A stretch of 64,000 bases of DNA from IMG/VR virus record IMGVR_UViG_3300022660_003821, one strand, 5' to 3'. Of this stretch, positions 34,158-64,000 are shown piece after piece. The position numbers and the translations under genes were made by a program. Below the pieces are notes generated by a model that had not been told where the DNA came from, did not search any database, and saw only the letters and a list, made by a program, of their open reading frames with translations. Position 1 is the stretch's first letter, and each line of letters starts with the position of its first letter. The stretch is from a virus. Taxonomy: Duplodnaviria; Heunggongvirae; Uroviricota; Caudoviricetes.

Positions 34158-34166
34158 TTAAGGTGC

Positions 34167-35128: not shown

Positions 35129-35165
35129 CGCAAATCATAAATCAAACGAGGCGTAACAGCCTCAT

Positions 35166-35238: not shown

Positions 35239-35243
35239 CATTC

Positions 35244-35315
35244 GCCCGATTCGTCTATCGGTTAGGACGCAAGATTTTCATTCTTGAAAGAGGAGTTCGA
35301 CTCTCCTATCGGGTA
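35244..35315 (+). tRNA. tRNA-Glu (TTC)
   Basis: Anticodon stem CAAGA/TCTTG with loop TTTTCAT, T arm AGGAG-TTCGACT-CTCCT. Confidence 0.7.
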
Positions 35316-35620
35316 CATTAGCCCTAAGTACACGGGATCGAAACCTCTCAGGCCCCGTCTCTGAGACCAGATCGTTAGCTGGGTGGTTGCTGCGCCATGA
35401 CAGAAGCAGCACTTAGATATAAGCCTGAATGCGCACAGGAACGAAGACACTGCACACTTAAAAAGTTCTGAAAAGAGAAGTGTAAAGGGCGGTCCAAATC
35501 GTAGGTTGGCGAGTGTTTACCGAGCTGGGTATTTTGTCGGTTCCAGGTGTTGAATTGGGGTTCAAATCCTTACATACCAGCGAAAGCCGGTATGCCATCA
35601 GGGGAAGTTTAGCACCACTT

Positions 35621-35694
35621 GTCTTGGTAGCTCAGTAGGTTAGAGCACTGCCCTGATAAGGCAGAGGTCGCAAGTTCAAGTCTTGCCTGAGACA
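35621..35694 (+). tRNA. tRNA-Ile (GAT)
   Basis: D stem GCTC/GAGC, anticodon stem CTGCC/GGCAG with loop CTGATAA, T arm GCAAG-TTCAAGT-CTTGC. Confidence 0.7.
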
Positions 35695-35763
35695 CAACCA
35701 TTAAAAATGGCTTAATTGATTGACAATTCCAGTGTGTTCTTGTGAAAGCTCATGCTGGAGAAT

Positions 35764-35847
35764 GGAAGGTAAAGTAGCGAGGTCGCTGCAACGGTCTTGA
35801 AAACCGATTGTCCTTTACGGGATTCTCTTCGAGTGGGATGCCTTCCG
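35764..35847 (+). tRNA. tRNA-Ser (TGA)-like, type II, with weak anticodon-stem and T-stem pairing
   Basis: Anticodon loop CTTGAAA in an E. coli Ser(UGA)-like context, with a long variable arm and an imperfect T stem. Confidence 0.5.
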
Positions 35848-35851
35848 CAAT

Positions 35852-35938
35852 GGTAGATTGACAGAGTGGACGAATGTGACGGTCTGCAAAACCGTATGAG
35901 TTAAATCTCACGCGCTGGTCCGAATCCAGCATCTACCT
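35852..35938 (+). tRNA. type II (Ser-like body) tRNA with anticodon GCA
   Basis: Acceptor GGTAGAT/ATCTACC, D stem ACA/TGT, anticodon stem ACGGT/ACCGT with loop CTGCAAA, variable-arm stem TGAG/CTCA, T arm GCTGG-TCCGAAT-CCAGC. Confidence 0.55.
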
Positions 35939-36003
35939 CATCGCTGTAGGATAATTTCGTTCCCCTTCCTATTCTACAGCATCGCCCCAATCGTGGGGCA
36001 CTT

Positions 36004-36076
36004 ATGGGTGTAGCACAGTTGGTAGTGTTCTTGGTTTGGGACCAAGAGGTCGCAGGTTCGAGTCCTGTCATCCATA
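36004..36076 (+). tRNA. tRNA-Pro (TGG)
   Basis: Anticodon stem CTTGG/CCAAG with loop TTTGGGA, T arm GCAGG-TTCGAGT-CCTGT. Confidence 0.6.
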
Positions 36077-36093
36077 CAAGAATTTATTAGACG

Positions 36094-36279
36094 ATGGATG
36101 ATAAAATAGTTAAAGCTATTGACAAATTATTTGCAGAAGCTCGCCAAGGCAATAAAGAGTCTTTTGAAATTATTGGTGAAATATTTAGTAAAGTAACCCA
36201 TGAAATGATAGTATCTCAAAGTTGTACTGAACAAATGAGACGAAATTATTCACGGTTCAAAAGATATAACATGAAATAA
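36094..36279 (+). CDS. small hypothetical protein (61 aa) between tRNA genes
   Basis: ORF. Confidence 0.3.
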   Translation: MDDKIVKAIDKLFAEARQGNKESFEIIGEIFSKVTHEMIVSQSCTEQMRRNYSRFKRYNMK

Positions 36280-36291
36280 TAATTTGTATAT

Positions 36292-36366
36292 GGGTTAATT
36301 AGTTCAATGGTCAGAACGCCTGTTTGTGGCACAGGAGACGGCAGTTCGATTCTGTTATTAGCCCCA
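36292..36366 (+). tRNA. tRNA-His (GTG) with G-1 and an encoded CCA
   Basis: D stem GTTC/GAAC, anticodon stem CCTGT/ACAGG with loop TTGTGGC, 3' end ATTAGCC-C-CA. Confidence 0.7.
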
Positions 36367-36368
36367 AA

Positions 36369-36429
36369 GGAACTGGTAGCTCAGTTGGCAAGAGACTTGG
36401 GTCGGTGGTTCGAGTCCACCTCAGTTCCC
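36369..36429 (+). ncRNA. tRNA-like element of about 61 nt without a proper anticodon arm; possibly a tRNA pseudogene
   Basis: Acceptor GGAACTG/CAGTTCC, D-loop-like AGCTCAGTTGGCAAGAG and T arm GGTGG-TTCGAGT-CCACC are all present. Only a 3-bp GAC-TTGG-GTC mini-hairpin stands where the anticodon arm should be. Confidence 0.4.
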
Positions 36430-36540
36430 TCAAAACCATTCGGGGTTAAGTGGAAGCCCGCCCCTGCGCATGAGTTTATGAGTACCTTGAACTCAACAAA
36501 CACTTATCGGGACATGGTGGTTAGGGTTGATCCATCACAT

Positions 36541-36613
36541 AGTGCATTAGTTCAGTGGTTAGAACGCCTGCCTGTCACGCAGGAGGTCACGGGTTCGAGT
36601 CCCGTATGCACTG
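36541..36613 (+). tRNA. tRNA-Asp (GTC)
   Basis: Perfect acceptor AGTGCAT/ATGCACT, anticodon loop CTGTCAC, T arm ACGGG-TTCGAGT-CCCGT. Confidence 0.75.
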
Positions 36614-36618
36614 CAATT

Positions 36619-36705
36619 GGAGGCGTGGGTGAATTGGTAAAACCACCACACTGCTAACGTGGCTGTCGTGAAAGCGGCTTGCAGGTTCGAAACCTGCCGC
36701 CTCCG
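36619..36705 (+). tRNA. tRNA-Ser (GCT), type II
   Basis: Acceptor GGAGGCG/CGCCTCC, anticodon loop CTGCTAA, long variable arm, T arm GCAGG-TTCGAAA-CCTGC. Confidence 0.7.
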
Positions 36706-36727
36706 CAATAACTTAATAGAAACAATT

Positions 36728-36952
36728 ATGAGCAACAAAACAACAACATCTGGAACAGGCATATCTTTTTTAGGTTTGCTTGCTATCGTTTTCATTACAT
36801 TAAAATTATGTAACGTCATCACTTGGTCATGGTGGTGGGTAACTGCTCCATTATGGGGAGGACTTGCTTTTTGGTTGGCCATTACTATTATTGCAATGGT
36901 ATGTTACGTGTTGATGTTACTGATTAAATGTATGGCAAAACGTAAGTCATAA
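36728..36952 (+). CDS. small two-transmembrane-helix protein (75 aa)
   Basis: Internal Met of ORF 36659..36952, placed after the tRNA-Ser. Confidence 0.4.
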   Translation: MSNKTTTSGTGISFLGLLAIVFITLKLCNVITWSWWWVTAPLWGGLAFWLAITIIAMVCYVLMLLIKCMAKRKS

Positions 36953-36958
36953 ATAGAT

Positions 36959-37029
36959 TGCTCTGTGGTGTAATGGTAACACATTAGATTTTGGTCCTGA
37001 GATTCCAGGTTCGACCCCTGGCAGAGCAA
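36959..37029 (+). tRNA. tRNA-Gln (TTG)
   Basis: Perfect acceptor TGCTCTG/CAGAGCA, D stem GTGT/ACAC, anticodon loop TTTTGGT, T arm CCAGG-TTCGACC-CCTGG. Confidence 0.65.
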
Positions 37030-37072
37030 CTAATCATTTTACGTAAAGCCTCAATTCGCATCTTTCTCGATA

Positions 37073-47794: not shown

Positions 47795-48365
47795 ACAAAC
47801 AGTTACCGTTTTCACTGAGATACAAAGAAGATTAGTAGACCCCACCTTTAAGTTTTCACAAGGTGGGGCTACAATCAGAACTCTATCAAACTTTTTAGAC
47901 TTGTTTGAAAAAGAGTTTGGATCCGTAACAAAGGAACGACTTGTTGATTTTTGCGTCTGCACAGCTTATACTTATCGCAATCGCCAGAACTGGACCGTAA
48001 AACAAGCATTCGGGCCATCTTCAATTAAGCGATTGAAAGAAAGTAAGCAAGGTAAAGCCTATTATGAGAACTCATGGTTATCAAGTGCTCAATTGAGCAG
48101 AGAATATCTTGTAAATCTTATAATTGATAGAAGGGAGCACCCGCAGGCTAAGTACATTTATGTACATTCTGAGGAGGCTTCTAAAAAAAGGCTATTAAAC
48201 CAAGAGGTTGGGTATTTGCTTTGTCAGACTTCTACATTGGGCTGGTCCCCTGTATCAGACGCATGTAAGCAATGTAACTATACGGAAAAGTGTAAGAAAG
48301 CAACACAAAGCAAATTCCCAGAACTCTACCGAATACGTGTAGAATATGGCGAAGCAAACAAGTAA
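47772..48365 (+). CDS. hypothetical protein
   Basis: ORF. Confidence 0.5.
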   Translation: MASENLIKQTVTVFTEIQRRLVDPTFKFSQGGATIRTLSNFLDLFEKEFGSVTKERLVDFCVCTAYTYRNRQNWTVKQAFGPSSIKRLKESKQGKAYYENSWLSSAQLSREYLVNLIIDRREHPQAKYIYVHSEEASKKRLLNQEVGYLLCQTSTLGWSPVSDACKQCNYTEKCKKATQSKFPELYRIRVEYGEANK

Positions 48366-49704
48366 TGTCTTAACAGAAGAATTTTTAATGGACCTGTTTT
48401 ATACCTGCATGGAAAATGACTATATCCTTGCAGTTGTTATGGAGCATGTTCGTAAGGAATATCTGCCGGACAGAGATTTTATTACATTGCATAGTTGCTT
48501 ACGTTCTTATTACAAGGATTACAAGAAAGCACCAACTTTTAGCATCCTAAAACAGATGATTGCAAACAACAAAAGCGCAGTCTCTTTATTGGATGATATT
48601 TATGATAGTGCTTCTGTGATTGAAACTGAACAAATCTTGGAGCAACTGGAGAACTACATTAAACAGGTGCGTTTCCAGAAAATCTACAAGGAGGTAGGCG
48701 AACTGTACAATAAATCGGGGCATGAAGAAGCCTCAAAGAAATTACAGGAATATACTGAGTGGGCATCTACGTTTAATCTTCGTTCATCAGAGTTTGTAGA
48801 CGTAATCGACACATTCGGCATTCGTTTCAAGGCAAATCGCCAGAAACATAATGCTGACAATAAAATGTTGCCGATTACTCGATTCTATATAGACGAACTT
48901 GATGCAATGAACAATGGACGTGATTTGCGCACCCAGTTAACGTGTTTTATGGCACCTACCGGCGTTGGTAAGAGTCATGCAGCACGTTGGATAGGTAAAA
49001 ATGCCTGTCAAATAGATGGATTGAATGTACTGCACTTTCAGTTAGAGGGTAGTAAAGATGAGGTAGTTAATGCGTATTCTGCCTCTTTGGTATCTTGTAG
49101 TACATATCGTTATGAGACAGGCACAATTAGAGATGTTGATATTGCGCGAATGGAGGCTATGCTCAAAGCGGTGTCCGGCAAACTATATGTAAAATCATAC
49201 CCTAAATTTAATGCGCATGTATCAACCATTGATATTAGAAATGGCATTCAAGATTTTAAGAAACGCTACGGTATCAATCCTGATGTAGTAATTATAGACT
49301 CAATCGACCTTCTTACTGACTCTTCTGGCCGTAAATACGGTGAAAATGGAGAGCGTCACAAACGTATTGCAGTAGCCAATGATCTTAAAGATTTGGCAGC
49401 TGATGAAAACGTATGGATGGTTGGCACTTACCAGTCTACAATTGAAAATAGAGACTGGTTAAATGATGAGAAGAATGTGCTTACAGAGTTTAATACAGCT
49501 GAAGCTAAAGGTCTTGCAAGACCAATGACACATTTGATTACCTTAAATCAATCTGACAGAGAACGCAAGGAACACACCATGCGTCTGAATGTTGCTAAGA
49601 GCCGCTTCTTTGAAAAGGGAGAACCATTCAAAATTGCCACAGACTATGACAATGAGCAATTTTATGATCAAGTGAGGACTATGAATATCAATAAAGTTGG
49701 GTAA
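48346..49704 (+). CDS. DnaB-like replicative helicase (T4 gp41-like)
   Basis: Walker A APTGVGKS and Walker B VVIIDSIDLL. Confidence 0.75.
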   Translation: MAKQTSNVLTEEFLMDLFYTCMENDYILAVVMEHVRKEYLPDRDFITLHSCLRSYYKDYKKAPTFSILKQMIANNKSAVSLLDDIYDSASVIETEQILEQLENYIKQVRFQKIYKEVGELYNKSGHEEASKKLQEYTEWASTFNLRSSEFVDVIDTFGIRFKANRQKHNADNKMLPITRFYIDELDAMNNGRDLRTQLTCFMAPTGVGKSHAARWIGKNACQIDGLNVLHFQLEGSKDEVVNAYSASLVSCSTYRYETGTIRDVDIARMEAMLKAVSGKLYVKSYPKFNAHVSTIDIRNGIQDFKKRYGINPDVVIIDSIDLLTDSSGRKYGENGERHKRIAVANDLKDLAADENVWMVGTYQSTIENRDWLNDEKNVLTEFNTAEAKGLARPMTHLITLNQSDRERKEHTMRLNVAKSRFFEKGEPFKIATDYDNEQFYDQVRTMNINKVG

Positions 49705-50740
49705 TATGTATATAAGTAGAGAAGATAAAGAGTTCTTGATTAAAGAACTTATGATAGAACTCAAAGCTAAGCCAGATGGCGGCAATAAGAACTTAATTGT
49801 TCCACGTTGCCCCTACTGTGGTAAAGAGGGTGGAAAGTTTGGAATTTATATCGGTAAAGAGACTGATAAAAAGAAACTTTTCATGAGCCATTGCTTCTCA
49901 TGTCATCATACGACAAAAGATATTAACCAACTTTTAGATGACATAGGCCGACCCGATTTGAAATTGGAAGACACAGCTTCGTTTCAGCCTTTGGAGATCC
50001 CTCAATTCTTCTCACTGGAAGAGGAGGAAATTGATGATGAGTTGTCAATTGTGGAAATGCCTGAAGGCTGGAAGCGGTGTTTTAGGAACTCTTATTTACA
50101 CAGCAGGGGATTTACATTTGATGATTACGAATACTTCCCTGTTGGTACCACAAGAGGTCTTAACTTTAAGTTCGACAATTATGTAGTATTCCCAATTATT
50201 GACAATGGCGATACAGTTGGGTATATCTCTCGACATATTTGGGATAAGTCTGAAATAGATGAATACAATAAGAAAGCAAGGCGTAACGGTAAATATGAGA
50301 TAAGGCGTTACAATAACAGCATAGAAAACGACTTCGTAAAATTACTGTATAACTATGACTCTATTATTGAAGATGAGACTGATACAGTAATAATTGTAGA
50401 AGGGATTTTTGATGTTATTGCTCTTACTCGGAAATTGGATTTGTACGACAATACTCGTATTGCAGTTGTTGCGACCTTCGGCAAAAAGATTTCCAATACG
50501 CAGATTTGGAAATTGCAAAGCAAGGGGGTAAAAACGGTCATATTGGGTTATGACGGTGATGCCGTAGATGCTATAAATACAGCAGCCATACAACTCAATG
50601 ATTATTTTGATGTTTTTATCGCCTACATAGAAGACCCGGATGCAGATTTTGATAGTATGGATTTCTGGGAAATTTTCGATGTGTTTTCTATGTCTTTGAA
50701 GACCCCAGTAGAATATAAACTTAATACAGTGCAGATATGA
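49697..50740 (+). CDS. DnaG-like primase (zinc finger plus TOPRIM)
   Basis: CPYCG..CFSCHH zinc site; TOPRIM residues at IIVEGIFD and GYDGDAVD. Confidence 0.75.
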   Translation: MGNMYISREDKEFLIKELMIELKAKPDGGNKNLIVPRCPYCGKEGGKFGIYIGKETDKKKLFMSHCFSCHHTTKDINQLLDDIGRPDLKLEDTASFQPLEIPQFFSLEEEEIDDELSIVEMPEGWKRCFRNSYLHSRGFTFDDYEYFPVGTTRGLNFKFDNYVVFPIIDNGDTVGYISRHIWDKSEIDEYNKKARRNGKYEIRRYNNSIENDFVKLLYNYDSIIEDETDTVIIVEGIFDVIALTRKLDLYDNTRIAVVATFGKKISNTQIWKLQSKGVKTVILGYDGDAVDAINTAAIQLNDYFDVFIAYIEDPDADFDSMDFWEIFDVFSMSLKTPVEYKLNTVQI

Positions 50741-52443
50741 AAGAATTGATTACATGGCTCCAAAACAATAAAATATCCTTCAATGAAATTGACAATGAGG
50801 TAATAGAGGTTGTTGGGATGGGTAAGATGTTTCTGGAAAATACTGAAAAGATAAATTCCATCTTCAGAACTGATAAAGAAGGTAATCTGATTTTTAATGG
50901 CAGTGAGGACCCGGAGGCATTGATGGAAGAAGGTATCAACTATATTGCCTTTAAGTTCGGAGACAACTGGTACTATTATGATTTACGAAAGGACTTCGCA
51001 TTGAATATCCTAAAGTATGTTGGTACGCGCGTGCAAACTACACATGATTTCCAGTTCGTGAACCTCGGTGTACATACTCCGTTTGAGTTATTGAATGGAA
51101 GTTTTATGCCGAAGTTATGGGTTAAGAAAGCAGCTTACTGTGGTCATAAGGCAATTGGTATATGTGACAGGAATACGATGGCAGCTTGCTACAATCTTCA
51201 AAAGGAATGCGCTAATGCTGGAATAAAACACATATTTGGTTATTCATTAACTTTTGTTGAGGGAGATAATAAAGTAGGAGCAAAAGTTTATGTTCAGTCT
51301 CAATCAGGATTACGTAACCTGTTGAGAATCCAAAAGGCAATTATGGTTGATAGTGAAGATAAAACTATTGGATGGAATGAATTGCTTAATCGTGGTGCCG
51401 GCAATGTGTTGGTGCTGGACAAGTATTCATCTTATTGGATAAAGGAAAATCCTGATTTAGTGAATGACTTGTTAGATGCGTTTGAACATGTATTCTACCA
51501 GGTAGACTTGTCTGAATATAAGGCTGAACGCATTGACATTAAAGTGCTGGAGGCCACTAAATACTATTTTGATAATTTGTATGACGATTCTGAAGTTCGC
51601 CCAATCTTGTTGTGCGACTGTTATTATCTCGACAAGGATAATGCTAAAAATAAAATCATACTGAATAAGGTGGCTGAGGGTGCTGCACATGAGCAGAGTG
51701 ATGATCAATATTTCAAAGATGTTGATGAACATTATGCTGTATTTGAGCAACTATTTGATGCCGATGTGTGGGATGTTGAGGTCTTGTTTCAAGAATGTTG
51801 CGATAACACATTAGTGGTTTCTGATGGTGCCGTTGCGCAATTTGAAAACACACGAAACTTCATGCCGAAATACACCATGCTTCCAGAAGAGGAAAAGAAA
51901 TATGGCACCGTGCATAACATGTTTAATCAATTGCTCGAAGATGGATTAAAACGCTTGGTGCCGGAAGACAAGCAAGAAGAATACAGGAAACAGATGGAAT
52001 ATGAAAAATATATTATTGAATCAACCAATAATGTAGATTACCTCCTTGTCCAATATGACACTTGCAATTGGAGCCGACAAAACAACATATTGGTTGGTTG
52101 TGGTCGTGGTTCTGCTGCCGGTTCTCTACTGTTGTACTTGCTTGGCATTACATTGATTGACCCTTTACAGTATGGTCTCATTTTCGAGCGTTTCTTGCTT
52201 CCAGAACGTGCTGGCTTATATAAAGCTGACACTACCATTATCGGTGAAGACATTGAAACCGATGAGTATGTAGAGATTGAACTGGAAGATGGTCACACGC
52301 TAAAGGTTTTCAAGGATGCAGAGCTGATCGTAAAACGGGAGGGATCTGAAAAACCAATCATTGTATATGCAGACGAACTGCAAGAGAATGACGATATACT
52401 ATTTGATAACAAGGACGTGCTATTCACTATAAATGAATTGTAA
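50737..52443 (+). CDS. dnaE: DNA polymerase III alpha (DnaE) N-terminal fragment: PHP domain and the start of the palm, ending in an intein-N-like tail
   Basis: PHP-like VNLGVHT..GHKAIGICDRN; then GCGRGSAAGSLLLYLLGITLIDPLQYGLIFERFLLPER matches the canonical DnaE segment; a 79-aa extra tail follows. Confidence 0.75.
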   Translation: MKELITWLQNNKISFNEIDNEVIEVVGMGKMFLENTEKINSIFRTDKEGNLIFNGSEDPEALMEEGINYIAFKFGDNWYYYDLRKDFALNILKYVGTRVQTTHDFQFVNLGVHTPFELLNGSFMPKLWVKKAAYCGHKAIGICDRNTMAACYNLQKECANAGIKHIFGYSLTFVEGDNKVGAKVYVQSQSGLRNLLRIQKAIMVDSEDKTIGWNELLNRGAGNVLVLDKYSSYWIKENPDLVNDLLDAFEHVFYQVDLSEYKAERIDIKVLEATKYYFDNLYDDSEVRPILLCDCYYLDKDNAKNKIILNKVAEGAAHEQSDDQYFKDVDEHYAVFEQLFDADVWDVEVLFQECCDNTLVVSDGAVAQFENTRNFMPKYTMLPEEEKKYGTVHNMFNQLLEDGLKRLVPEDKQEEYRKQMEYEKYIIESTNNVDYLLVQYDTCNWSRQNNILVGCGRGSAAGSLLLYLLGITLIDPLQYGLIFERFLLPERAGLYKADTTIIGEDIETDEYVEIELEDGHTLKVFKDAELIVKREGSEKPIIVYADELQENDDILFDNKDVLFTINEL

Positions 52444-52445
52444 CT

Positions 52446-53747
52446 ATGACAATAACCGATGAAATGAAGAAAGCCATTGAGTTGATAGAAACAACCAATG
52501 AGAGTGTGTATATTACAGGTAAGGCTGGTACGGGAAAGACCACATTCCTTAAATGGCTGGTTTGTAACTGTAAGAAAAAATTTGTTGTTACCGCTTCCAC
52601 TGGCATTGCCGCCATTAACGCTGGAGGTGTGACGTTGCATAGTTTTTTGAATATTCCTTTTGGAGTTCATAATCCTAACTCTGCTGTCACTCAATTTAAT
52701 CATTCAAAAATTGAGTTGATGAATACAATAGATGCTCTAATCATTGACGAAATAAGCATGGTGCGTCCAGATACCATAGATTACATTGACCAAAAATTAC
52801 GCATGTATAGAAATAGTGACGAGCCATTTGGGGGCGTACAAATCATCATGTTTGGCGATTTGTATCAACTGCCACCTGTTGTTACAAACAATGAAAAAGA
52901 CATCCTTCTCCAGTTCTATCGTGGCGTGTACTTTTTCTATGCGTATGTATTCAGAAAGCATGGATTTCATATTGTTGAATTAAATCATATCTTCAGGCAA
53001 ACTAATCCAAGGTTCATTGAAATATTGAATAACATCCGTTCTTATAAGTTGACACAAGAAGATATTGAGGATCTGGAGGTGTTACGAGATAGAAAGTTAA
53101 GTGAGGAGTACGATAATCAGTATATTCATATTTGCTCATATCGTAAAGATGTTCAACGTATAAATGAGGAGCTATTGGGAACACCAACCCACACCTATTA
53201 TGCTACAATTGAAAAAGATTTCAATTTAAGTTCCGCACCATGTGATAGAAAATTGTCATTACGTGTTGGCGCACGGGTGATGATGTTAATCAATGACAAG
53301 GCTCACGTCTACTGCAATGGCTCTCTGGGCGTAGTTGTAGGATTGGATGATAAAGTAGTCAAGGTGCAGTTAGATAATGGCTGTACGGTGGCCGTAGAGC
53401 GTTGTGAATGGTCTGCACAAGAATATAAGATGAAGAATGGTAAAATTGTAAGTGAAATTAAAGGAACTTGTAAACAATTTCCTCTAACATTAGCGTGGGC
53501 AATTACTATTCATAAAAGTCAAGGCTTAACATTTGACCATGTAGTAGTTCATACAAAAGGAGTGTTTTGTCCCGGACAGGTATATGTTGCGTTAAGCCGA
53601 TGTACATCACTTGAAGGCATAATTTCCGATGTTTTTATCGACCATCGTCATATCCTCCCAGATGACGAATTATTAGCATTTGAAAAGGCTTATAATGCCA
53701 CGCACAACTTCTTTAATAGAGAGACTTATAAATTGATGAGACAATGA
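52446..53747 (+). CDS. Pif1/RecD-family helicase, encoded between the two DnaE fragments
   Basis: GKAGTGKTT, LIIDEISMV, GGVQIIMFGDLYQLPPV, ITIHKSQGLTFDHV and YVALSRC. Confidence 0.8.
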   Translation: MTITDEMKKAIELIETTNESVYITGKAGTGKTTFLKWLVCNCKKKFVVTASTGIAAINAGGVTLHSFLNIPFGVHNPNSAVTQFNHSKIELMNTIDALIIDEISMVRPDTIDYIDQKLRMYRNSDEPFGGVQIIMFGDLYQLPPVVTNNEKDILLQFYRGVYFFYAYVFRKHGFHIVELNHIFRQTNPRFIEILNNIRSYKLTQEDIEDLEVLRDRKLSEEYDNQYIHICSYRKDVQRINEELLGTPTHTYYATIEKDFNLSSAPCDRKLSLRVGARVMMLINDKAHVYCNGSLGVVVGLDDKVVKVQLDNGCTVAVERCEWSAQEYKMKNGKIVSEIKGTCKQFPLTLAWAITIHKSQGLTFDHVVVHTKGVFCPGQVYVALSRCTSLEGIISDVFIDHRHILPDDELLAFEKAYNATHNFFNRETYKLMRQ

Positions 53748-55915
53748 AAGTTGTTAGTGTACAAACTAAAAAAAGCACAAAGCCAATTCCCGTGATAGAT
53801 TGCTTTGTTGACTCTGGATATTTACAAGGGCCAGGTGGACAGCTCCCAGATGTGGATGTCGATTATCAATCAGATAAACGTCAAGAGGTTAAGGAGTATA
53901 TAGAACATCGTTATAACCACGACAACAAACAAAGGGTATTCTCTGCTGGTACTGTAACTACATTAAAAGTAAAGGCTGTGATTAAAGACGTGGCCCGTAC
54001 TATGCGTATTCCACCAGCATTGGTCAATTATCTGACAGCAATTTTTGATGATGATAAGATGACCTATACAGACATTTTCAAATTGGCAGCACAGAACAAA
54101 AAGGTGGCAAAGTTTATTGCTGACTATCCGCAGTTATTTGAAGATATACGCACACTTATGTTTCAACCGCGCTCAGGTTCAATTCACGCTTCGGCATTGC
54201 TGGTTACACCTGATGAAAAAGATGGAGAAGATGTTGAGTGCTTTGATTTTGTTCCAATAAAAAAGGTGGACAATATTCTTGTGTCTGAGAATGACGGTTA
54301 TGAACTTGATGAACTCGGTCTTCTGAAGAATGACTGCCTTGCAACAAAAGAGTTATCTAAACTTCAAGCAACGATGGCTATCTGCAATCAAGAGTATGGC
54401 ACTAACTTATCGCTTGAATCTTTGGCTACTGGTGCGCTTGATGATGAAAGAGTGTACCAATTGCTTGGACAAGGTTATACACAAAATGTCTTCCAGTTCT
54501 CTTCTCGTGGTATAACTAAGTTTCTCACGCAGTTAAAGCCTACTTGTATAGGAGACCTTATTGCGGCAAATGCTTTGTATCGTCCGGCAACAATGGGAAA
54601 CTTGGATGAATTTGTTAATAGAAAAGATAAACTGGTCGCGCCCACTTATCTTTGGGGAACGTACAATGCTCTCAAAGACACATTTGGAGTTGTGGTGTAC
54701 CAGGAACAGATTGTTCACATGGCCCGTGAGGTTGGTAATTTCAGTCTTGGAGAGGGCGTAAATCTTGTGAAGTTCATTTCAAAAAAGAAGACTGACAAGA
54801 TTTTGGCAATGAAAGACAAATTCATGACTGGAGCAAAAGAAAATGGGTGCCCTAAAGAAGATGCAGATGCTATATGGGCGCAAATCGAAGCTGCTGGAGC
54901 ATATTGTTTTAACAAGAGCCACGCTACTGCTTATGCCGTTACATCATACGTTGGTGCATATTTGAAGGCTAATTATCCAACTGCATTCTATACTGTGGCA
55001 TTACAATGGGCAGATGACGATGAACTTGTTACATTGATGGGAGAGATGGAAGCATGTAGCAATGCAAAGGTTGTTCCTCCAGATATTAATGTAAGTGAAG
55101 ACGCTTTTCATACAGATTATGCAACGGATTCGATATTCTGGTCCTTATCACGTGTCAAGCAACTCGGAACTAAGGCTGTGCAATGGATTATGGAAGAACG
55201 CCGTAAGAATGGAGATTTCACAAGCATCAACAACTTCATTGACCGAATATTCAAATACAAACTGAAAAAGTATGAATATTGGGATGATCCTGATAATGCA
55301 GAAGAAGCTACTCGATGTCCAGTAAATGCGAGATGTGTCCTAAACTTGATTCTTGCCGGGTGTTTCGATAAGGTTGAACATGCTGAATCAGTAGTAGAAC
55401 GATATGCTATTATTGAAAAAGCTGCTGAACATTTAGGGTTTGAAATTAAAGAAAAAGACTTTCCAGCAGATATGATTAACAAGCATTATTTCTGGAGTCA
55501 GCAGCAAATCGTGGTGTCTGGCATTGGTGCCATAGATTATAAAAGAATATATGATAACTCTGAAGCAAAGGCTCAATTGAAAGGTAAGGCTTCCTATGCA
55601 ACTTTAAGAGACGTTGCTCCTTTGGAAGCAGAAGATAAGAAAGTGGCAATTTGCGCTACGGTTGTTGATGTTGAAGAACGCAAATTCACAAGTAAAAAGA
55701 CAGGTGATATTGAAGTTTTCTGTAAAGTCACGCTCCAGCAAAACAATGATATTTGCGAATGTGTGATTTGGCCGGAAGAATACGCTCAACATCGTGGTGC
55801 GTTAATGAATGCCAAAAATAAATTGATCATTTTCTCTGCAACTATCAAGTACAGTGATTATGAAGGCAAAAATAATCTTCAATTTAACAAACGTAGTGTA
55901 TTAGAAGTTGTGTAA
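53744..55915 (+). CDS. dnaE: DNA polymerase III alpha (DnaE) C-terminal fragment: polymerase core and OB fold, with an intein-C-like N-terminal extension
   Basis: PDVDVDYQSDKRQEVKEYIEHRY resumes the DnaE sequence immediately after FERFLNPER; FNKSHATAYA is the DnaE signature. Confidence 0.8.
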   Translation: MKVVSVQTKKSTKPIPVIDCFVDSGYLQGPGGQLPDVDVDYQSDKRQEVKEYIEHRYNHDNKQRVFSAGTVTTLKVKAVIKDVARTMRIPPALVNYLTAIFDDDKMTYTDIFKLAAQNKKVAKFIADYPQLFEDIRTLMFQPRSGSIHASALLVTPDEKDGEDVECFDFVPIKKVDNILVSENDGYELDELGLLKNDCLATKELSKLQATMAICNQEYGTNLSLESLATGALDDERVYQLLGQGYTQNVFQFSSRGITKFLTQLKPTCIGDLIAANALYRPATMGNLDEFVNRKDKLVAPTYLWGTYNALKDTFGVVVYQEQIVHMAREVGNFSLGEGVNLVKFISKKKTDKILAMKDKFMTGAKENGCPKEDADAIWAQIEAAGAYCFNKSHATAYAVTSYVGAYLKANYPTAFYTVALQWADDDELVTLMGEMEACSNAKVVPPDINVSEDAFHTDYATDSIFWSLSRVKQLGTKAVQWIMEERRKNGDFTSINNFIDRIFKYKLKKYEYWDDPDNAEEATRCPVNARCVLNLILAGCFDKVEHAESVVERYAIIEKAAEHLGFEIKEKDFPADMINKHYFWSQQQIVVSGIGAIDYKRIYDNSEAKAQLKGKASYATLRDVAPLEAEDKKVAICATVVDVEERKFTSKKTGDIEVFCKVTLQQNNDICECVIWPEEYAQHRGALMNAKNKLIIFSATIKYSDYEGKNNLQFNKRSVLEVV

Positions 55916-56427
55916 TGAAACCAACCATTTTAGCAATTGTAGGGCCGTCAGGAAGCGGTAAAACGTCATTGGCCGAATATCTAAAGAAAATGCTGGATAT
56001 TCCAGTCATCGTTTCATATACCACTCGCCCAATCAGAGAGGGTGAAGTTGACGGTGTAGACCATCATTTTGTGTCTGAGTGTGATATGCCTCCAAAAGAA
56101 CAGATGTTAGCTTATACTAAGTTTGGTGGCTTTCATTATTGGTCACAAACAAGCCAAGTTCCCGAAAATGGAGCGTGTAGTTATGTGATTGATGAAAAGG
56201 GGTTACTGAAACTGTGGGAAAAATTTGATCAACAATATCGAATCGTGCCAATCCTTATCAAAAGAGACATTGAGTTATTGCGTAAAACTGTCTCTCCAGA
56301 GAGATTAAAACGCGATAAAGTTCGAGTTACTATTGAAGATGCAGCTTACAATGCGATTATAGAAAACAATGGTACACTGCAAGAGTTTCTGACAAAGGCA
56401 TTACAAATAATACAAAAATTGATATAA
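55915..56427 (+). CDS. guanylate-kinase-like nucleoside monophosphate kinase
   Basis: GPSGSGKTS P-loop and TTRPIREGEVDGVDHHFVS. Confidence 0.7.
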   Translation: MKPTILAIVGPSGSGKTSLAEYLKKMLDIPVIVSYTTRPIREGEVDGVDHHFVSECDMPPKEQMLAYTKFGGFHYWSQTSQVPENGACSYVIDEKGLLKLWEKFDQQYRIVPILIKRDIELLRKTVSPERLKRDKVRVTIEDAAYNAIIENNGTLQEFLTKALQIIQKLI

Positions 56428-56428
56428 T

Positions 56429-57208
56429 ATGGCAGCACCAAAAGAAGAGAATCCAATTCTCGTAGCATTCACTTTAGACTTTGAGACTGGTGGGTTAAAA
56501 TGTCAAACATCAGCCTGCACCCAGATTGCAATTCATGCAACTCGTTTGGACACATTTGAACGTCTCGGTTCGTATGTGAAATATATTTATCCATACAACC
56601 AAAAAGAAATCAAAGGCGTTACTGCAAAACGCAAAGTGCTTAAAAACAAACATGACATTGAAGAAGAGAAGCCTATGGATTACGAATCAAAGGCTCTGGA
56701 ATATTCCGCTATTACTATGGACATGCTCTATAATATGGGTGTGGATATTGTAACGGTAGCAAATGAGGTGGTCCAATTTATTGCCGACCATACTCCTAAA
56801 ACTCCAAAGAATATGAAACCGTTTCTAATCGGACAGAATGTTGATTTTGATAAAGGTTTCTTTATGCAAATGATGGAATATGCTGGTCTTGTCAAAGAAG
56901 TTTCCAAACATCTTAGAGGACACGAAGACTTCTATGGGCATTGGCAACCAGATGTGCTTGACACAATAATTTTAGGACAGTTGGCGATGTGTGCGACCCC
57001 AAATACATCATCATATAAACTTGAATTGATGTGCGAAAGACTTGGTGTTGAACTCGATGATGCTCACGATGCAGACGCGGACGTTTCGGCAACTACCAAT
57101 GTTGTCGCAGTTCTCACACAAAGAATGAGAAGTGTTGGTGGTGTTATTGAGGGTGGCGAAATTGCAATGACTAAAACAGAAAAAAGTAGGAAACATTTTA
57201 AGATATAA
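56429..57208 (+). CDS. DEDD-family 3'-5' exonuclease (DnaQ-like)
   Basis: Exo I LDFETGG, with acidic motifs near FDKGF and H..DADAD. Confidence 0.6.
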   Translation: MAAPKEENPILVAFTLDFETGGLKCQTSACTQIAIHATRLDTFERLGSYVKYIYPYNQKEIKGVTAKRKVLKNKHDIEEEKPMDYESKALEYSAITMDMLYNMGVDIVTVANEVVQFIADHTPKTPKNMKPFLIGQNVDFDKGFFMQMMEYAGLVKEVSKHLRGHEDFYGHWQPDVLDTIILGQLAMCATPNTSSYKLELMCERLGVELDDAHDADADVSATTNVVAVLTQRMRSVGGVIEGGEIAMTKTEKSRKHFKI

Positions 57209-58578: not shown

Positions 58579-59069
58579 ATAAGATTGACTCTATTATAAT
58601 TCACTGCTCAGCCACTAAAGAAGGAGTGAATTTCAAAGCTAAAGATATTGATAGAATGCACAAGCAACGTGGATTCAATCAAATCGGCTATCATTACGTA
58701 ATTGATTTAGATGGTACCATAGAACCAGGCAGACCACTTAATAAATATGGTGCTCACTGCAACACAAAAGGTTTCTCTGGTCAATCATATAATAAGCACA
58801 GTATCGGTATTTGCTATATTGGTGGACTGGACTCAAATGGTAAACCGGCAGATACACGAACTGAAGCGCAAAAACAGGCTCTACATAACTTAGTATCTGA
58901 GATTTGTCAAAAGTATCAAATCTTTGAAATACTTGGGCATAGAGATACCTCACCAGATTCTGATGGAGACGGAGAGGTCGAGCCAGCAGAGTGGATTAAA
59001 TCATGCCCTTGTTTTGATGTAGGAGCTGAGTTCCCTAATTTCTTAAAGACAGTTGTTGTTCATCCATGA
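58575..59069 (+). CDS. N-acetylmuramoyl-L-alanine amidase (Amidase_2/PGRP-type endolysin)
   Basis: IIHCSAT, GYHYVI and HRD motifs. Confidence 0.7.
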   Translation: MNKIDSIIIHCSATKEGVNFKAKDIDRMHKQRGFNQIGYHYVIDLDGTIEPGRPLNKYGAHCNTKGFSGQSYNKHSIGICYIGGLDSNGKPADTRTEAQKQALHNLVSEICQKYQIFEILGHRDTSPDSDGDGEVEPAEWIKSCPCFDVGAEFPNFLKTVVVHP

Positions 59070-59584
59070 AAAAGTTACCTTGGATTTTAGTTGTGATTTT
59101 GTCAGTTGCATTGATGTTTTCTATAAACAAAAATGTGCAACTGACAAATTATAGTAATGTGTACACAGATACTTTAACGGTAAGAGACACTATCCCCTAT
59201 CCAGTGCCTGTGCCACGAGACAGCGTTGTACTGCGTTATCGGTATGTTACTATACCAACCACTCCCGAAACGCCTGACTCAACGAAAACAGAGGATAAGC
59301 AACCAGAAATACAAGTTGTAGAATCTACGCCTGACTCAACGAAATTATCTATACCAATAACCCAGCGAAAATATGAAACGGAATCTTTTACTGCGTGGGT
59401 AAGTGGTTATAATCCTCAATTAGATAGTTGCTGGGTATATCCTAAAACAACAACCATAACAAAAGTACAAAAATTAAATACTGGCCGTTGGGGTCTGGGT
59501 GTGCAAGTTGGTATGGGTGTATGTGGTAATAAGGTCAGCCCTTATATTGGAGTTGGTGTTAGCTATAATTTATTTACTTGGTAA
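59066..59584 (+). CDS. membrane-anchored protein; lysis accessory or spanin candidate
   Basis: N-terminal transmembrane helix; follows the endolysin. Confidence 0.4.
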   Translation: MKKLPWILVVILSVALMFSINKNVQLTNYSNVYTDTLTVRDTIPYPVPVPRDSVVLRYRYVTIPTTPETPDSTKTEDKQPEIQVVESTPDSTKLSIPITQRKYETESFTAWVSGYNPQLDSCWVYPKTTTITKVQKLNTGRWGLGVQVGMGVCGNKVSPYIGVGVSYNLFTW

Positions 59585-59588
59585 TTTT

Positions 59589-59633
59589 AGAGCCTGTCTA
59601 ACAAACTAAAAAGTTAGACAGGCTCTTTATTTA
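59589..59633. terminator. bidirectional rho-independent terminator between convergent operons
   Basis: 14-bp perfect stem AGAGCCTGTCTAAC/GTTAGACAGGCTCT flanked by T/A runs. Confidence 0.75.
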
Positions 59634-59649
59634 TAAACAAGAAAAGAAA

Positions 59650-60678
59650 TTAGATTTGCCAAGGATTTTGGTACGGGTCATAGTCACGCATGAAGGTGGC
59701 GATTGCATATTCCGTAACTGGCTTATGCTCATCATCCAGTTTGCGTGGTATTTGTGGATTTATTTTCATCCTTGCAGCATCTCTTAACCACATGATAGAA
59801 GTCTCATAATCTGTGATACGGGCAGAACTTACGTTGTTTGGTGAAATGAGCTTGTGTAACTCATAAATAGCCAGACGAAGCATGTGTTTCTTTACATTTC
59901 CATTTCTGGGGTCATGCTGACGAATGTTGTAGCCTTCTTTAAGCTCGTCTGCATTGACATCCATCGTAGGAGCATATACCTTATCTTTGTAAACCACATA
60001 TTCTGTTTCTGAGAACTGATATTGGTATTCTGGATCATAGTCTCCGATAAGACCCCAATTATCAGAATCGAATGGGTTCATAGTCCAATCCGCATCATCC
60101 AGTTTCATTAGGGTGTAGAATTTACCTTCCCATTTCACTACATTCCATAACTCGTATTCAAAATTCGCTTGCCATTCATAAGACATCACTTCCTCCCAAG
60201 CATTTATACCGGGTACACGAATATCATTAAAGTCTAATCCGTGTGGTTCAAGACAAATATAGTATGAACCGTTAATATGTACGATGTCACCAGGCTGATA
60301 ATTGCGCAATTGGGAATACTCAATTACTGCGGTTTCATCATATATATAGTCTGTGTATTCTTGCCAATAAACCACATCTGAAGGGGCTTTATAGCCATTG
60401 ATGGAACGCAACGCTTCCCAAACTTTCCCTTCATTATAAAAATGGGCACCTACCGGGTAAATAATTTGAGGATTATACCCCATCAAATTTTTACCGATTG
60501 TCAATACTTTTTCAATTTCATAGTTGTCAATGAGGTATTCAATGATAGATGATTCAGCAGCTTCTTCTGCCTGTGCAAGACGCTCCTCATTGCCTCGAAT
60601 CAGTTGCAATAATGCCTCTTCGGTAATGATGCCGATATAGTCATTGTTGTTAAGAAAACGCTTATACATTATTATCAA
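59650..60678 (-). CDS. hypothetical protein (342 aa), downstream of the large terminase
   Basis: ORF. Confidence 0.5.
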   Translation of the reverse strand: MIIMYKRFLNNNDYIGIITEEALLQLIRGNEERLAQAEEAAESSIIEYLIDNYEIEKVLTIGKNLMGYNPQIIYPVGAHFYNEGKVWEALRSINGYKAPSDVVYWQEYTDYIYDETAVIEYSQLRNYQPGDIVHINGSYYICLEPHGLDFNDIRVPGINAWEEVMSYEWQANFEYELWNVVKWEGKFYTLMKLDDADWTMNPFDSDNWGLIGDYDPEYQYQFSETEYVVYKDKVYAPTMDVNADELKEGYNIRQHDPRNGNVKKHMLRLAIYELHKLISPNNVSSARITDYETSIMWLRDAARMKINPQIPRKLDDEHKPVTEYAIATFMRDYDPYQNPWQI

Positions 60679-62258
60679 AAATTAAAGGTTCCGTAAATTG
60701 GTGTTGCCGTTGTTTCCAATACTTTTCTTGAACTGCGGAATTTGTTCCAGCTTTCATTTATACAAAGACATAACGCATAGTCAAAACAGTCTGACAAGTG
60801 ACCGTACTTCTCATACTTAACGCCTGATTTCGGGTCTGTAACCTTTGACTTATTTTTTGTACCATCTGCATTTTTCTTCTGGTACACCAAGTCTTCTGTA
60901 AATTTGCGACAACGCATATCAATTAATATCTCCCAGCCATCATATCCTTCAAACAGACTATTTATAAACTCCAATCTGGCCACTTGTGGTGGTTGTTTGT
61001 TAAGAAGTTTTTTATGTGCTCTTAATATAGGATTATTCATATTGCTAAGGATAATCGTATAATTGTTCACCCCTTCTTCTGTTTGGGTAGAACGAGCTAA
61101 ACCTGCCGGGTCTCCAGTAATTAATAGACCTCCCGTATGTTTTTCGGTTAAATACTTGTCTTTAACCTTTTGAGATAGTTTAGGAGTATTATTGTCCTTG
61201 TTCTCTGGTTTGCCAAGTATCTCTTCCAATACATATATTTTCTTTTTGTCATAATCAATCTGGAGTGATAGCGTACTCATAAATGGAGATACGTTAAAGT
61301 CCCAGCTACTGACAATTGGCTTTAGAGGATTATATACCTTCTCTTTTAAGTTGGAAACAAGATGTTTCTCTCCATCAAAAGAGCTATATGCTGCCATAAT
61401 ATTAGTATCAACGAAATCCCAGTTGCCATACAATAAGCGTTCACGTGTCGCGCGATCTCTAATCTTATTAAGAGACGCTTCGTATGTTTGACGGAATTTA
61501 ATATCTGGGTTATCAAATATACTAAATGGTACGTATGCTTCGCCTTCTTTACATACAATTGGATTTCCTTCATCATCTTGAACGAATCTGGAACGTACCC
61601 ATGTGATACAGGGGTTAGTAGACATAAACATACGCGGAGTTTTGAAAGTCTCGTGCGTTCTCCAACGAAGACGAGAAAACAAGACTTCTATTGCGCGTTC
61701 TGAAATTTCTGACACCTCGTCTACAAATGCAATTGTGTATTCGGATGAACCAAAACGCTCGAAATTAGGGTCAGATGGTAAGTCCACCATTTCTTTCAAT
61801 AGAATCACTGAATCATTCCAGAAAGTCACAGTGCCCTCCAGGTTATTGATTTTATAGTTAATTCCTTCTTTGAGACCCCATGTTTTTAGAATTGTCTTAA
61901 TAGTATTAAATGTAGACTCCTTTAATGACTTGATTGTTTTACGGGCAACTACTGCGCGGATGTTTTCAAATCGAATACAACTGCTAATAATCCAACAACT
62001 GCCTAAATATGATTTACCACCACCAGCAGCTCCACCACCAAGAATAAGCTGAGGCAAATCCTGGGATTGACATTTATTACATTGTGGTTTATATTGCGCA
62101 TTGCCTTTAGCGTCATATCCAATCAAAACCTGTTCAATCTGGCCGCCACAATGAGGACAATAATCAGGTTGCAACAATTTCCAAAGTTCATATTGCTTAG
62201 GAGATGGTTGCAAATTGATTACAAGATTTTTTGGAGCCTTTAATACGCCGTATGCCAT
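60675..62258 (-). CDS. terminase large subunit with an N-terminal zinc ribbon
   Basis: Walker A GGGAAGGGKS, Walker B IAFVDEVSE, and a C-terminal nuclease-like region. Confidence 0.75.
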   Translation of the reverse strand: MAYGVLKAPKNLVINLQPSPKQYELWKLLQPDYCPHCGGQIEQVLIGYDAKGNAQYKPQCNKCQSQDLPQLILGGGAAGGGKSYLGSCWIISSCIRFENIRAVVARKTIKSLKESTFNTIKTILKTWGLKEGINYKINNLEGTVTFWNDSVILLKEMVDLPSDPNFERFGSSEYTIAFVDEVSEISERAIEVLFSRLRWRTHETFKTPRMFMSTNPCITWVRSRFVQDDEGNPIVCKEGEAYVPFSIFDNPDIKFRQTYEASLNKIRDRATRERLLYGNWDFVDTNIMAAYSSFDGEKHLVSNLKEKVYNPLKPIVSSWDFNVSPFMSTLSLQIDYDKKKIYVLEEILGKPENKDNNTPKLSQKVKDKYLTEKHTGGLLITGDPAGLARSTQTEEGVNNYTIILSNMNNPILRAHKKLLNKQPPQVARLEFINSLFEGYDGWEILIDMRCRKFTEDLVYQKKNADGTKNKSKVTDPKSGVKYEKYGHLSDCFDYALCLCINESWNKFRSSRKVLETTATPIYGTFNF

Positions 62259-62323
62259 TAATTAAAGAAAAAGACGCACCATTGGAAGGCACGTCTTGAT
62301 TATATAGTTACGAAACAAGATAT

Positions 62324-62650
62324 TTACGCATTTGCTGCGTTATAGATTTTCTCGACTGTTGCCCATAGGTCATCTGGATAAGCAGACTCTGCAAGGGCTT
62401 CGCAGGATTTCTTCAGGTAATCAATTTCTTGCTTGCTGAACTCAACAACCAATGGCTGTTCCATGTCCTTCTTGCTATCCCAAGTTACCTTACCGGCCTG
62501 CTGGTCTTCTACAATCGCATACTCATCTTTATCCTTTTCAGTGAGAGCGACCTTCTTGATAATCTCACGTTTCAAATTGTATTCCATAAACGAGTTCTGC
62601 GCTGGCAGAAGCTGTGGAATGTAGATTCTGTCCTTAATGTGTAGTTCCAT
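62324..62650 (-). CDS. hypothetical protein
   Basis: ORF. Confidence 0.45.
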   Translation of the reverse strand: MELHIKDRIYIPQLLPAQNSFMEYNLKREIIKKVALTEKDKDEYAIVEDQQAGKVTWDSKKDMEQPLVVEFSKQEIDYLKKSCEALAESAYPDDLWATVEKIYNAANA

Positions 62651-62722
62651 ATTGTTATTCTTTTATCGTTTTAATAAGAATAGGAAACATACGATGATAG
62701 GGTTTATAAAGTCTCTCACTTT

Positions 62723-64000
62723 TTACATTGCAGCCTTCATAAAAGCCATCTGTAGTTTCTGCTGATTGATTATACTATCACCATTGTAGTAATGCTCCTG
62801 AATCATCTCTATGCTCGTTCCAGCGGCCATTGCAACGTATGAGATAGGCAAACCGCTATCTAAGGCTACGGTAATGGCTGTATGGCGAAATACATAAGCA
62901 TATAAGCTGTAATCCAATCCCAGTTCTTTCCCTACACACTTCAACCATATATTAAGTTTCTCGCGGAACTTCTTGAATAAATAGTCGGCTGTTGTGTATG
63001 CCGCTTCTTTCTTGTCATCCATAATCGGGAACACATATCCATCAACCGTTTGCCCCTTATACTTCGCTATGATATTTGCCATTGCTGGAGATACCGGCAC
63101 TTCTACAGGCTGATGGGTCTTCTTTCGTTTTACACGGATTGTATTGGCTCTGGTGATGTCTGAATACTTCAGCTTGATTACATCACAAGGCGCGAAGAAG
63201 GAATGGAACATGAATACGCAAAAGTCATGATACAGTTCAACTTGTTTGCGGTCCTTATATGTAGGTGTAAAAGTTTTCAAATCCGCATTAAGGAATTGCT
63301 TCAGTTGCTCGGTTGTAAGCACATCGGGCTTCCTGTCATCGACACAATGCTTTTTCGGATTGTAATCGGCAAATACAAAGTCTCCTATCTGGGTAAGAGA
63401 AAACGGGACCTCATGGTCCTTACTTGCTTTGCCCAGTACATTCCTGAAAGCCTTGGTTGTGCCTTTATAGCCGTCATATTTAGCAAACGTATGAGCCAGT
63501 CGCACACAAGTCTTGTAATCGAGTAACTGGAAGGTTAATGACGAGAAGCCTTTGATGATTTTGCGACACTTGCTCAGTAGCTTGGAGTACGTCTCAAAAT
63601 TACAGCCTTGTTTCGCCTTCTCGCGCACGATAATCTCTTCCAGGTATTTCTCCACAAAGTTGAACTCCAAAGCCTCTGTAGTCTCTTCTGTTGGCTTCTG
63701 AGGGGCAATGGTGCCGACCTGTTTGATAGGCTGGAAGTATGATGCCACCTGTCGCGCAGTAAGTTCGGGGTGTTCAAACAGCAGCTTTGTATAGGTACTC
63801 TTGAACTCCTCCAGTGCCTTATTATTCTCGGAATAGGAAACAGCATTGGCAGAGAATCGCTCTTTATCAGCGTTCCAATGCTTTGCCAGATTCGGACTGC
63901 CGGTCAAAAGATGTTTGACGGACTTATAATATCTCTCTTTTCCCTCACTTATTCTTAGGACGAGGGAATTGTCCTTAATAATGAATTTTAGCTTCACCAT
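62723..64000 (-). CDS. tyrosine-type site-specific integrase
   Basis: C-terminal catalytic region YAYVFRHTAIT..EHYY; Bacteroidetes-type integrase architecture. Confidence 0.75.
   Translation of the reverse strand: MVKLKFIIKDNSLVLRISEGKERYYKSVKHLLTGSPNLAKHWNADKERFSANAVSYSENNKALEEFKSTYTKLLFEHPELTARQVASYFQPIKQVGTIAPQKPTEETTEALEFNFVEKYLEEIIVREKAKQGCNFETYSKLLSKCRKIIKGFSSLTFQLLDYKTCVRLAHTFAKYDGYKGTTKAFRNVLGKASKDHEVPFSLTQIGDFVFADYNPKKHCVDDRKPDVLTTEQLKQFLNADLKTFTPTYKDRKQVELYHDFCVFMFHSFFAPCDVIKLKYSDITRANTIRVKRKKTHQPVEVPVSPAMANIIAKYKGQTVDGYVFPIMDDKKEAAYTTADYLFKKFREKLNIWLKCVGKELGLDYSLYAYVFRHTAITVALDSGLPISYVAMAAGTSIEMIQEHYYNGDSIINQQKLQMAFMKAAM

Follow-up and report, generated by a model that had tools for sequence, protein, structure and literature searches.

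The stretch of DNA analysed here, hereafter the window, is a 64,000-nucleotide segment of a gut phage of the Caudoviricetes (IMG/VR record IMGVR_UViG_3300022660_003821), in which dnaE, the gene for the α subunit of DNA polymerase III (Pol III α), is encoded as two open reading frames (ORFs) with a helicase gene between them. All features of this locus, and the neighbouring genes described below, lie on the + strand. The N fragment (568 residues; 50737..52443) comprises a phage-specific N-terminal region, the PHP domain, the first part of the palm as far as the motif FERFLLPER, and then a tail, as judged from Pfam and PHROG matches; the C fragment (723 residues; 53744..55915) comprises a leader, the catalytic PDVDVD motif, the remaining palm, the thumb, the fingers, the HhH domain, and a C-terminal region. 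PHP, palm with PDxDxD, fingers, and HhH thus follow one another in the canonical order of a DnaE-type (C-family) Pol III α. The intervening gene (52446..53747) encodes a 433-residue Pif1/Dda-like helicase of superfamily 1B (SF1B). The three genes are tightly packed: the TAA of the N fragment is followed by a 2-nucleotide spacer and the ATG of the helicase, and the TGA of the helicase overlaps the ATG of the C fragment. Promoter-like and terminator-like sites at the three genes showed no excess over the shuffled expectation.

The position of the break is defined by the ORF coordinates as well as by the boundaries of the profile matches. In the N fragment, Pfam PHP covers residues 111-207 and positions 3-99 of the 260-position DNA_pol3_alpha profile match residues 396-492; the C fragment covers positions 94-260 of the same profile and contains the finger and HHH_6 domains. 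Against the full-length polymerase profile phrog_405, the N fragment stops at position 441 and the C fragment restarts at position 442. These boundaries bear out a preliminary description of the window, which had placed the split exactly between FERFLLPER and PDVDVD. The same description had reported a 34-residue leader, a complete Pif1/RecD-family helicase between the halves, and a 79-residue tail foreign to DnaE: the leader is confirmed at 53744..53845 and the helicase by its matches to PF05970 (7e-31) and phrog_325 (3e-81), whereas the tail, which is indeed extra sequence, is 77 residues long after PER (52210..52440), the figure of 79 having counted two extein residues. We propose that the tail (AGLYKADTTII...LFTINEL) contributes the N-terminal portion of a Hint domain (a domain of the intein fold) that is catalytically dead, and that the leader (MKVVSVQTKKSTKPIPVIDCFVDSGYLQGPGGQL), which passes through an ordinary uninterrupted junction into the PDVDVD motif immediately 3′ of it (53846..53863), is the C-terminal part. 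The locus accordingly has the layout of a fractured gene: one dnaE as two same-strand ORFs, with predicted Hint halves at the break.

The split is widespread. Searches found 3231 homologues of the N fragment and 7907 of the C fragment, nearly all of ~568 and ~723 residues, respectively; 80 of 80 IMG/VR loci, on phage contigs of ~100 kb, are broken at the identical place; and an exhaustive search of 1.8 billion representatives recovered the identical break among proteins with as little as ~30% identity. When the region was compared by megablast with a phage collection, nothing matched; a search in protein mode did yield relatives. Cultured phages carry the split as well: Bacteroides phage BS-TP1 (66% identical), Cellulophaga phage phi13:1, in which the halves are the adjacent genes gp038 and gp039, and Cellulophaga phage phiST. 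Since cultured phages carry it, two-chain polymerases evidently support phage replication. In the BS-TP1 entry (L081; PQ571274.1, 9025-10653), the linear record begins inside the dnaE C fragment; residues 1-541 of that fragment are present but unannotated, the other strand has a small “hypothetical protein” annotated on it, and the polymerase is thus annotated as its N half alone.

A pseudogene, an assembly or frameshift artefact, or a helicase region that behaves as an intron-like element at the RNA level would account for a broken dnaE, and an unusual architecture such as this one invites such explanations; nothing else speaks for them. Thousands of homologues and the 80 of 80 loci show that the split is not a product of chance or of assembly error, the same architecture being present in independent assemblies and in cultured phages. 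Moreover, the fragments are 69-70% conserved, the helicase ORF is complete and conserved, with overlapping start and stop codons, and an Rfam scan of the window matched tRNA as the sole family. We regard this group of explanations as hardly credible, and as ruled out by the conservation and the tight operon.

The tail and the leader lack the residues that an intein needs for splicing. The preliminary description had noted this absence for the window, and it holds there and across the family. Position 1 of the tail holds Ala in the window; of the 104 distinct tails, 103 begin with AGL and the remaining one with ASL; Cys at position 1 is limited to the clade L074-L080 and to P0247, P0248, and P0260, and Ser to P0249. 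The segment that we take to be block B, by the motif spacing of the known intein blocks in the alignment (GHTLKVFKDAEL; 52291..52326), reads G-H-T-L-K-V-F-K-D-A-E-L in the window, so that the canonical G..l..T..H.f has become G..L..F..A.L: the Thr and His places are held by Phe and Ala in the window (F-K-D-A) and by D-x-D-A in the family, whose consensus is GK..KID.DA.L and whose Ala is nearly invariant. The leader ends in GPGGQL before PD in the window and in GG or HG before SLPD in relatives, and never in His-Asn; the residue preceding LPD is Gln in the window and S, Q, A, or G across relatives.

These substitutions bear directly on whether the halves could still be joined into a single-chain polymerase by a non-canonical trans-splicing reaction, of class 2 or class 3 type or of a new kind. 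Such a reaction could draw on the fact that some inteins begin with Ala, on the Cys often seen in the leader's block-F-like VIDCFVD, and on Cys1 in the L074 clade, P0247, P0248, and P0260. However, no C-terminal Asn, Gln, or Asp is present, the +1 nucleophile is not conserved (Gln in the window; S, Q, A, or G elsewhere), the block B His is replaced by the nearly invariant Ala, and the clades with Cys1 likewise have neither the His of block B nor a terminal Asn; their Cys1 may be a relic of an active ancestor. Two specific candidates were rejected. A class 3 intein acting through the leader Cys is ruled out, as this residue varies among C, T, M, and L and the terminal Asn is absent; and the Ser before LPD cannot serve as +1 nucleophile, as it is not conserved and the S-L-P-D that ends most leaders is also present in intact DnaE relatives, i.e. 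is native polymerase sequence. We therefore judge trans-splicing to be very improbable. Because every splicing residue is lost, the domain would stay in the mature enzyme.

The evidence that tail and leader belong to one Hint domain comes from profile searches and structure prediction. The preliminary description had proposed running intein hidden Markov models on both termini; Pfam searches gave matches to the families Intein_splicing and Hint, all of them below threshold. The tail alone matched Pfam Intein_splicing at E = 0.009. When tail and leader were fused for 31 members, Intein_splicing was matched by 17 (best 1.3e-4) and Hint by 7, which made them the first and third most frequent families among the matches. 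A structure model was built for a 428-residue construct that contains both palm halves, the two chains being artificially fused, from an alignment of N-fragment records with natural intact DnaEs as bridging rows; N-fragment records by themselves formed the other usable alignment. Its mean predicted local distance difference test (pLDDT) score was 92.3 and its predicted template modelling (pTM) score 0.84, with values of 88-97 in the insert except at the artificial joint. In this model, the long strands of the tail (144-166) pair with a long β-hairpin of the leader (E221-246), and that hairpin leads directly into the catalytic DVDVD strand. The N and C pieces are thereby predicted to form a Hint fold together, and we count them as one Hint domain on the strength of this prediction; the rebuilt palm is a prediction of the same model. 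The length of the leader agrees with this picture: the C pieces of natural split inteins are ~35-37 residues long, and a leader of 34-35 residues has the usual length.

Nor do the two segments look like remnants. Over 42 loci, identity to the window is 65% for the tail and 58% for the leader, as against 69% and 70.5% for the exteins; by this measure, tail and leader are not decaying but are conserved almost like the polymerase core. During alignment, MAFFT repeatedly placed the second half of the tail (LKVFKDAELIVKREGSEKPIIVYADE; tail residues 31-66) onto the leader (MKVVSVQTKKSTKPIPVIDCFVD), which may stem from the pseudo-twofold symmetry inside Hint domains, or from chance.

The comparison of intact and split dnaE in related phages that the preliminary description had suggested yielded both forms: the split is conserved in the 80 loci, and intact relatives exist. 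Among those of 150 representatives in which the site could be anchored, 47 have an intact DnaE with a linker of merely 4-7 residues at this place (e.g. FERFLNESRIQSSLPDIDTDF), 13 have an intact DnaE with a contiguous insert of 11-95 residues, and 42 are split, with tails of 46-84 residues. One intact DnaE, P0260 (1257 residues), is especially informative: its insert, PER/CGLL...GYLLEGKPSMPDID, aligns over the entire tail and leader and has no C-terminal Asn. The preliminary description had named exactly this, an uninterrupted dnaE with the same segment as an internal insertion, as an observation that would speak against it, and P0260 is such a case. As the intact P0260 holds the homologous insert, the same domain exists in a form that is neither split nor spliced; we read the P0260 alignment as pointing to a domain that is kept unspliced, rather than as an argument against the Hint fold.

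Several observations weigh against an intein origin of the domain. All matches to Intein_splicing and Hint fell short of the Pfam gathering score (16 bits vs. a cut-off of 35.8), and the profile of fused tail and leader found no intein among PDB sequences, giving noise at E ~0.5-1. The fold evidence consists of predictions on an artificial fusion of two chains; a stand-alone model was of low confidence (pLDDT 63), and alignment depth over the leader was slight or nil in both models. A canonical intein at the FERFLLPER/PDVDVD site was found in 0 of the 150 representatives, and for this reason intein ancestry rests on the fold and on weak profile signals. Finally, many distant relatives have inserts of 44-72 residues or tails of 46-68 residues with no Hint signal, the short inserts giving just SH3-like noise; a small β insert could thus have been what the domain grew from.

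Taken as a whole, these points describe a coherent alternative: the insert would be an ordinary insertion domain in this lineage of polymerases, a small β-barrel that was enlarged and was never an intein, its likeness to Hint being convergent or an artefact of prediction, and foreign genes would have split it later. The intact relatives with contiguous inserts of 11-95 residues and the many split tails of just 46-68 residues fit this alternative as well as the short forms, the sub-threshold Pfam matches, and the negative PDB search do. Weighed with the recurrence of Intein_splicing and Hint among the profile matches, the predicted pairing of tail and leader, and the length of the leader, we consider it unlikely, although it has clearly more in its favour than trans-splicing.

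We therefore favour, with a probability of about 65%, a two-chain polymerase that is clasped by a dead, retained split Hint domain. On this model, a single tightly packed operon encodes a DnaE-type Pol III α in the form of two polypeptides, and the break lies within an extra palm domain of ~111 residues (77 + 34) between FERFLLPER and PDVDVD. That domain lacks all splicing residues, would have the Hint fold, and would be kept in the mature enzyme beside the active site. Tail and leader would fold together by β-strand complementation, as do the halves of split inteins, and the dead Hint domain would hold the palm halves in register to give a non-covalent two-chain polymerase. That the Hint domain drives assembly, or clasps the halves, is what we infer by analogy with split inteins.

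The helicase is not required for this arrangement. Its PIF1 core includes the P-loop motif GKAGTGKT, and its match to Pif1_2B is weak. In L057, L061, L063, and L074-L080, the helicase is absent from the gap and the C fragment comes directly after the N fragment, the two remaining separate ORFs. As these clades without Pif1 are split at the same place, the helicase is incidental, and it is ruled out as the cause of the split; it is an ordinary replication gene that landed in the gap as cargo. The gap is an insertion hot spot, in which relatives hold extra small ORFs or homing endonucleases, the latter just upstream of the C fragment: a GIY-YIG+NUMOD1 endonuclease in L008 (11017-12243), and NUMOD4+HNH_3 endonucleases in L101 (3352-3888), L034 (11004-11549), and L029 (3233-3775). 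The preliminary description had remarked that the helicase occupies the slot in which fractured genes with split inteins usually have a free-standing homing endonuclease. This is correct for some relatives, whose gap holds an HNH or GIY-YIG endonuclease, whereas no free-standing homing endonuclease lies between the halves in the window, where the gap holds only the Pif1/Dda-like helicase.

The junction of leader and polymerase, uninterrupted in the window, is rewritten in a subset of relatives. In at least 10 distinct variants, a leader ORF of 35 codons ends in S-L-P, after which comes a stop codon, and the D.D.D frame restarts after an insert of 7, 8, or 12 nucleotides, in another frame or in the same one (e.g. 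CCG TGAG TCG GAT; CCG TAGGG CCG GAT; CCG TAAGGAAGA CTG GAT). Stop junctions of this type occur in L014, L029, L032, L034, L054, L063, L074-L080, L084-L091, L095, L097, L098, and L101, and the equivalent place in the window is 53845-53849. All 10 junction variants have a perfect stem of 9-10 bp upstream, built by the QG..GSL codons, with compensatory changes between variants. The minimum free energy of the junction is −17.7 to −21.2 kcal/mol in the 10 variants vs. −1.3 to −9.0 kcal/mol in 39 ordinary junctions, that of the window included.

These junctions are associated with the HNH gene, which is present at 6 loci with a stop/hairpin junction and at 0 of 60 ordinary junctions, in a set of loci that are not phylogenetically independent and of which some are truncated. 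The HNH gene, a take-off codon followed by a stop, and an upstream stem-loop occur together in L101, L029, L034, L087, L090, and L060. Comparison of L101 with the window, at 80-84% nucleotide identity, reveals a clean insertion of the HNH gene: L101 has its NUMOD4+HNH_3 homing endonuclease gene (178 residues) at a point that is empty in the window (53741..53742). The 3′ end of the leader is also rewritten, from CAG CTC CCA GAT in the window to TCC CTG CCG TAA GG CCA GAT in L101. As it has the uninterrupted form, the window junction is a candidate homing site.

How the stop is overcome in these relatives can be narrowed down from the frame relations. The junction is a candidate for a programmed ribosomal hop or frameshift, and we favour a short hop because it is the sole single mechanism that fits all three frame relations; a +1 or −1 shift, or independent initiation, are the alternatives, and an in-frame ATG 14 codons upstream in L014, L032, and L034 would fit the last of these. 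Pro codons flank the gap in 3 of the 10 variants, namely L101 (CCG/CCA) and L029 and L074 (CCG/CCG), the others having TCG, GCG, or CTG. The window carries 11 tRNA genes at 33361-37030 (Met, Leu, Ala, Glu, Ile, Cys, Pro-TGG, His, Asp, Ser, and Gln); it is pure speculation that the phage tRNA-Pro(UGG) could read both codons, CCG and CCA, found on either side of the gap in recoded relatives. In relatives with the stop and hairpin, the leader may be a separate peptide of 35 residues, and this possibility counts against the two-chain model above, in that it weakens the case for the leader as a tether of the C fragment.

Combining both sets of observations, one arrives at a more far-reaching scenario: a domesticated dead split intein would be the obligatory joint of two-chain replicative polymerases throughout a wide radiation of Bacteroidota phages, and an HNH cassette would home at the junction DNA and protect itself by the hairpin and by a 7-12 nucleotide stop insert over which ribosomes hop. 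We put this forward tentatively, with the odds somewhat against it in its entirety.

A true intein at a second site in the same polymerase serves as a positive control for what the break lacks. Close relatives, up to 98% identical, have a canonical intein of 280-282 residues with an HNH domain at CFNK/SH, a site that is empty in the window (54916..54917) and occupied in, for instance, P0126, P0150, and L057. This intein, AYCFNK/CISGKETI...(282 residues with HNH)...GVVTCN/SHATAYA, has Cys1, the terminal Asn, and Ser+1, and the protein that hosts it in P0126 has Pfam Intein_splicing in its precomputed domain list. The relatives in which the second-site intein was seen are P0126, P0150, L057, L003, L005, L013, and L061, and the second-site region of L061 appears to be disrupted by frameshifts.

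The genes around dnaE are, by PHROG assignment, a DnaB-like helicase (48346-49704) and a primase (49697-50740) upstream, and a guanylate-kinase-like gene (55915-56427) and a DnaQ-like exonuclease subunit (56429-57208) downstream; with these neighbours, the locus is a replication module. Elsewhere in the window, a stretch at ~3000-7000 is GC-rich (up to 55% vs. a background of ~38%), has overlapping ORFs on both strands, and gave no Pfam and no Rfam match. At ~59000-64000, both the GC skew and the AT skew reverse in sign near 60 kb, suggesting that the coding strand changes where the replication and packaging module ends.

Among the closest known counterparts of the locus are split genes of cultured phages. 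In Cellulophaga phi13:1 and phiST and in Bacteroides BS-TP1, the break falls at the same place; ...GR is followed by a tail, and a leader that begins MK[IV][IV].[IV] precedes LPDID. The Cellulophaga version is minimal, with a tail of 53 residues and a leader of 18. The annotations of these split genes read no more than “DNA polymerase III alpha subunit” or “DNA polymerase”; we found no published analysis of the split. The Ssp/Npu DnaE intein of cyanobacteria resembles the window in its Pol III α host, in being naturally split, and in its C piece of ~35 residues. The cyanobacterial split intein is inserted next to CFNKSH. It thus differs in its insertion site, which is close to the second site in relatives of the window; moreover, its halves are catalytically active and come from genes that lie far apart.

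Dassa et al. (2009, PMC2677866) described split inteins in fractured genes, three DnaE loci, gp41-1, and NrdJ-1 included; all five catalytic residues are kept in them, and they are held to trans-splice. The window shares with them an essential replication gene in the form of adjacent same-strand ORFs, facing ends that would make up a Hint domain, and a gene in the gap, and its relatives L101, L029, L034, and L008 share the free-standing HNH or GIY-YIG endonuclease. It is unlike them in that its family lacks every catalytic residue across a large radiation and in that its own gap gene is a helicase.

The stop/hairpin junctions of the relatives, rather than the window itself, recall the split topoisomerase genes 39 and 60 of T4, in which a mobA HNH cassette is accompanied by a 50-nucleotide translational bypass and by extensions on both halves, a type of cassette so far reported in topoisomerase genes only (Manning and Atkins, 2022 preprint, 10.1101/2022.08.31.505936). 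Both have a split replication gene whose halves enclose an HNH gene, a codon with a stop behind it at ~35 codons from the start of the downstream half, a stem-loop upstream, and, in 3 variants of the relatives, a landing codon that matches, just ahead of where the frame restarts. The relatives differ from T4 in having dnaE as the split gene, a gap of only 4-9 nucleotides instead of 50, and a landing codon that matches in just 3 of 10 variants. If hopping takes place, the relatives would add to a very small set of natural bypass elements, and endonuclease-linked translational bypass would have a second natural family, whose gap is far shorter than that of T4 gene 60.

Degenerate inteins are also known. 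The yeast HO endonuclease is one (10.1101/2020.01.20.913210), and it was the only example that our search of the literature for vestigial or domesticated split inteins returned; HO, bacterial intein-like domains, and Hedgehog are single-chain domains with other activities, unlike the joint proposed here. In the searchable literature, we found no report that a dead split Hint domain joins the chains of a two-chain enzyme or polymerase. What is already known, then, is fractured DnaE with active split inteins, annotated split dnaE in cultured phages, and degenerate single-chain inteins such as HO.

Inteins are usually viewed as selfish elements that need to splice out or else kill the host protein. 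Here, a predicted Hint domain adjoins the catalytic aspartates of an essential polymerase, has none of the splicing residues, is conserved like the enzyme itself, and is split over two chains. If the enzyme is assembled through this joint, nature would here offer a clear example in which a split intein has become a permanent heterodimerisation module, and a possible source of small, non-splicing protein-pairing tags. As the arrangement is present in the cultured phages phiST, phi13:1, and BS-TP1, the prediction is directly testable in systems whose polymerase is divided at the same place as that of the window.

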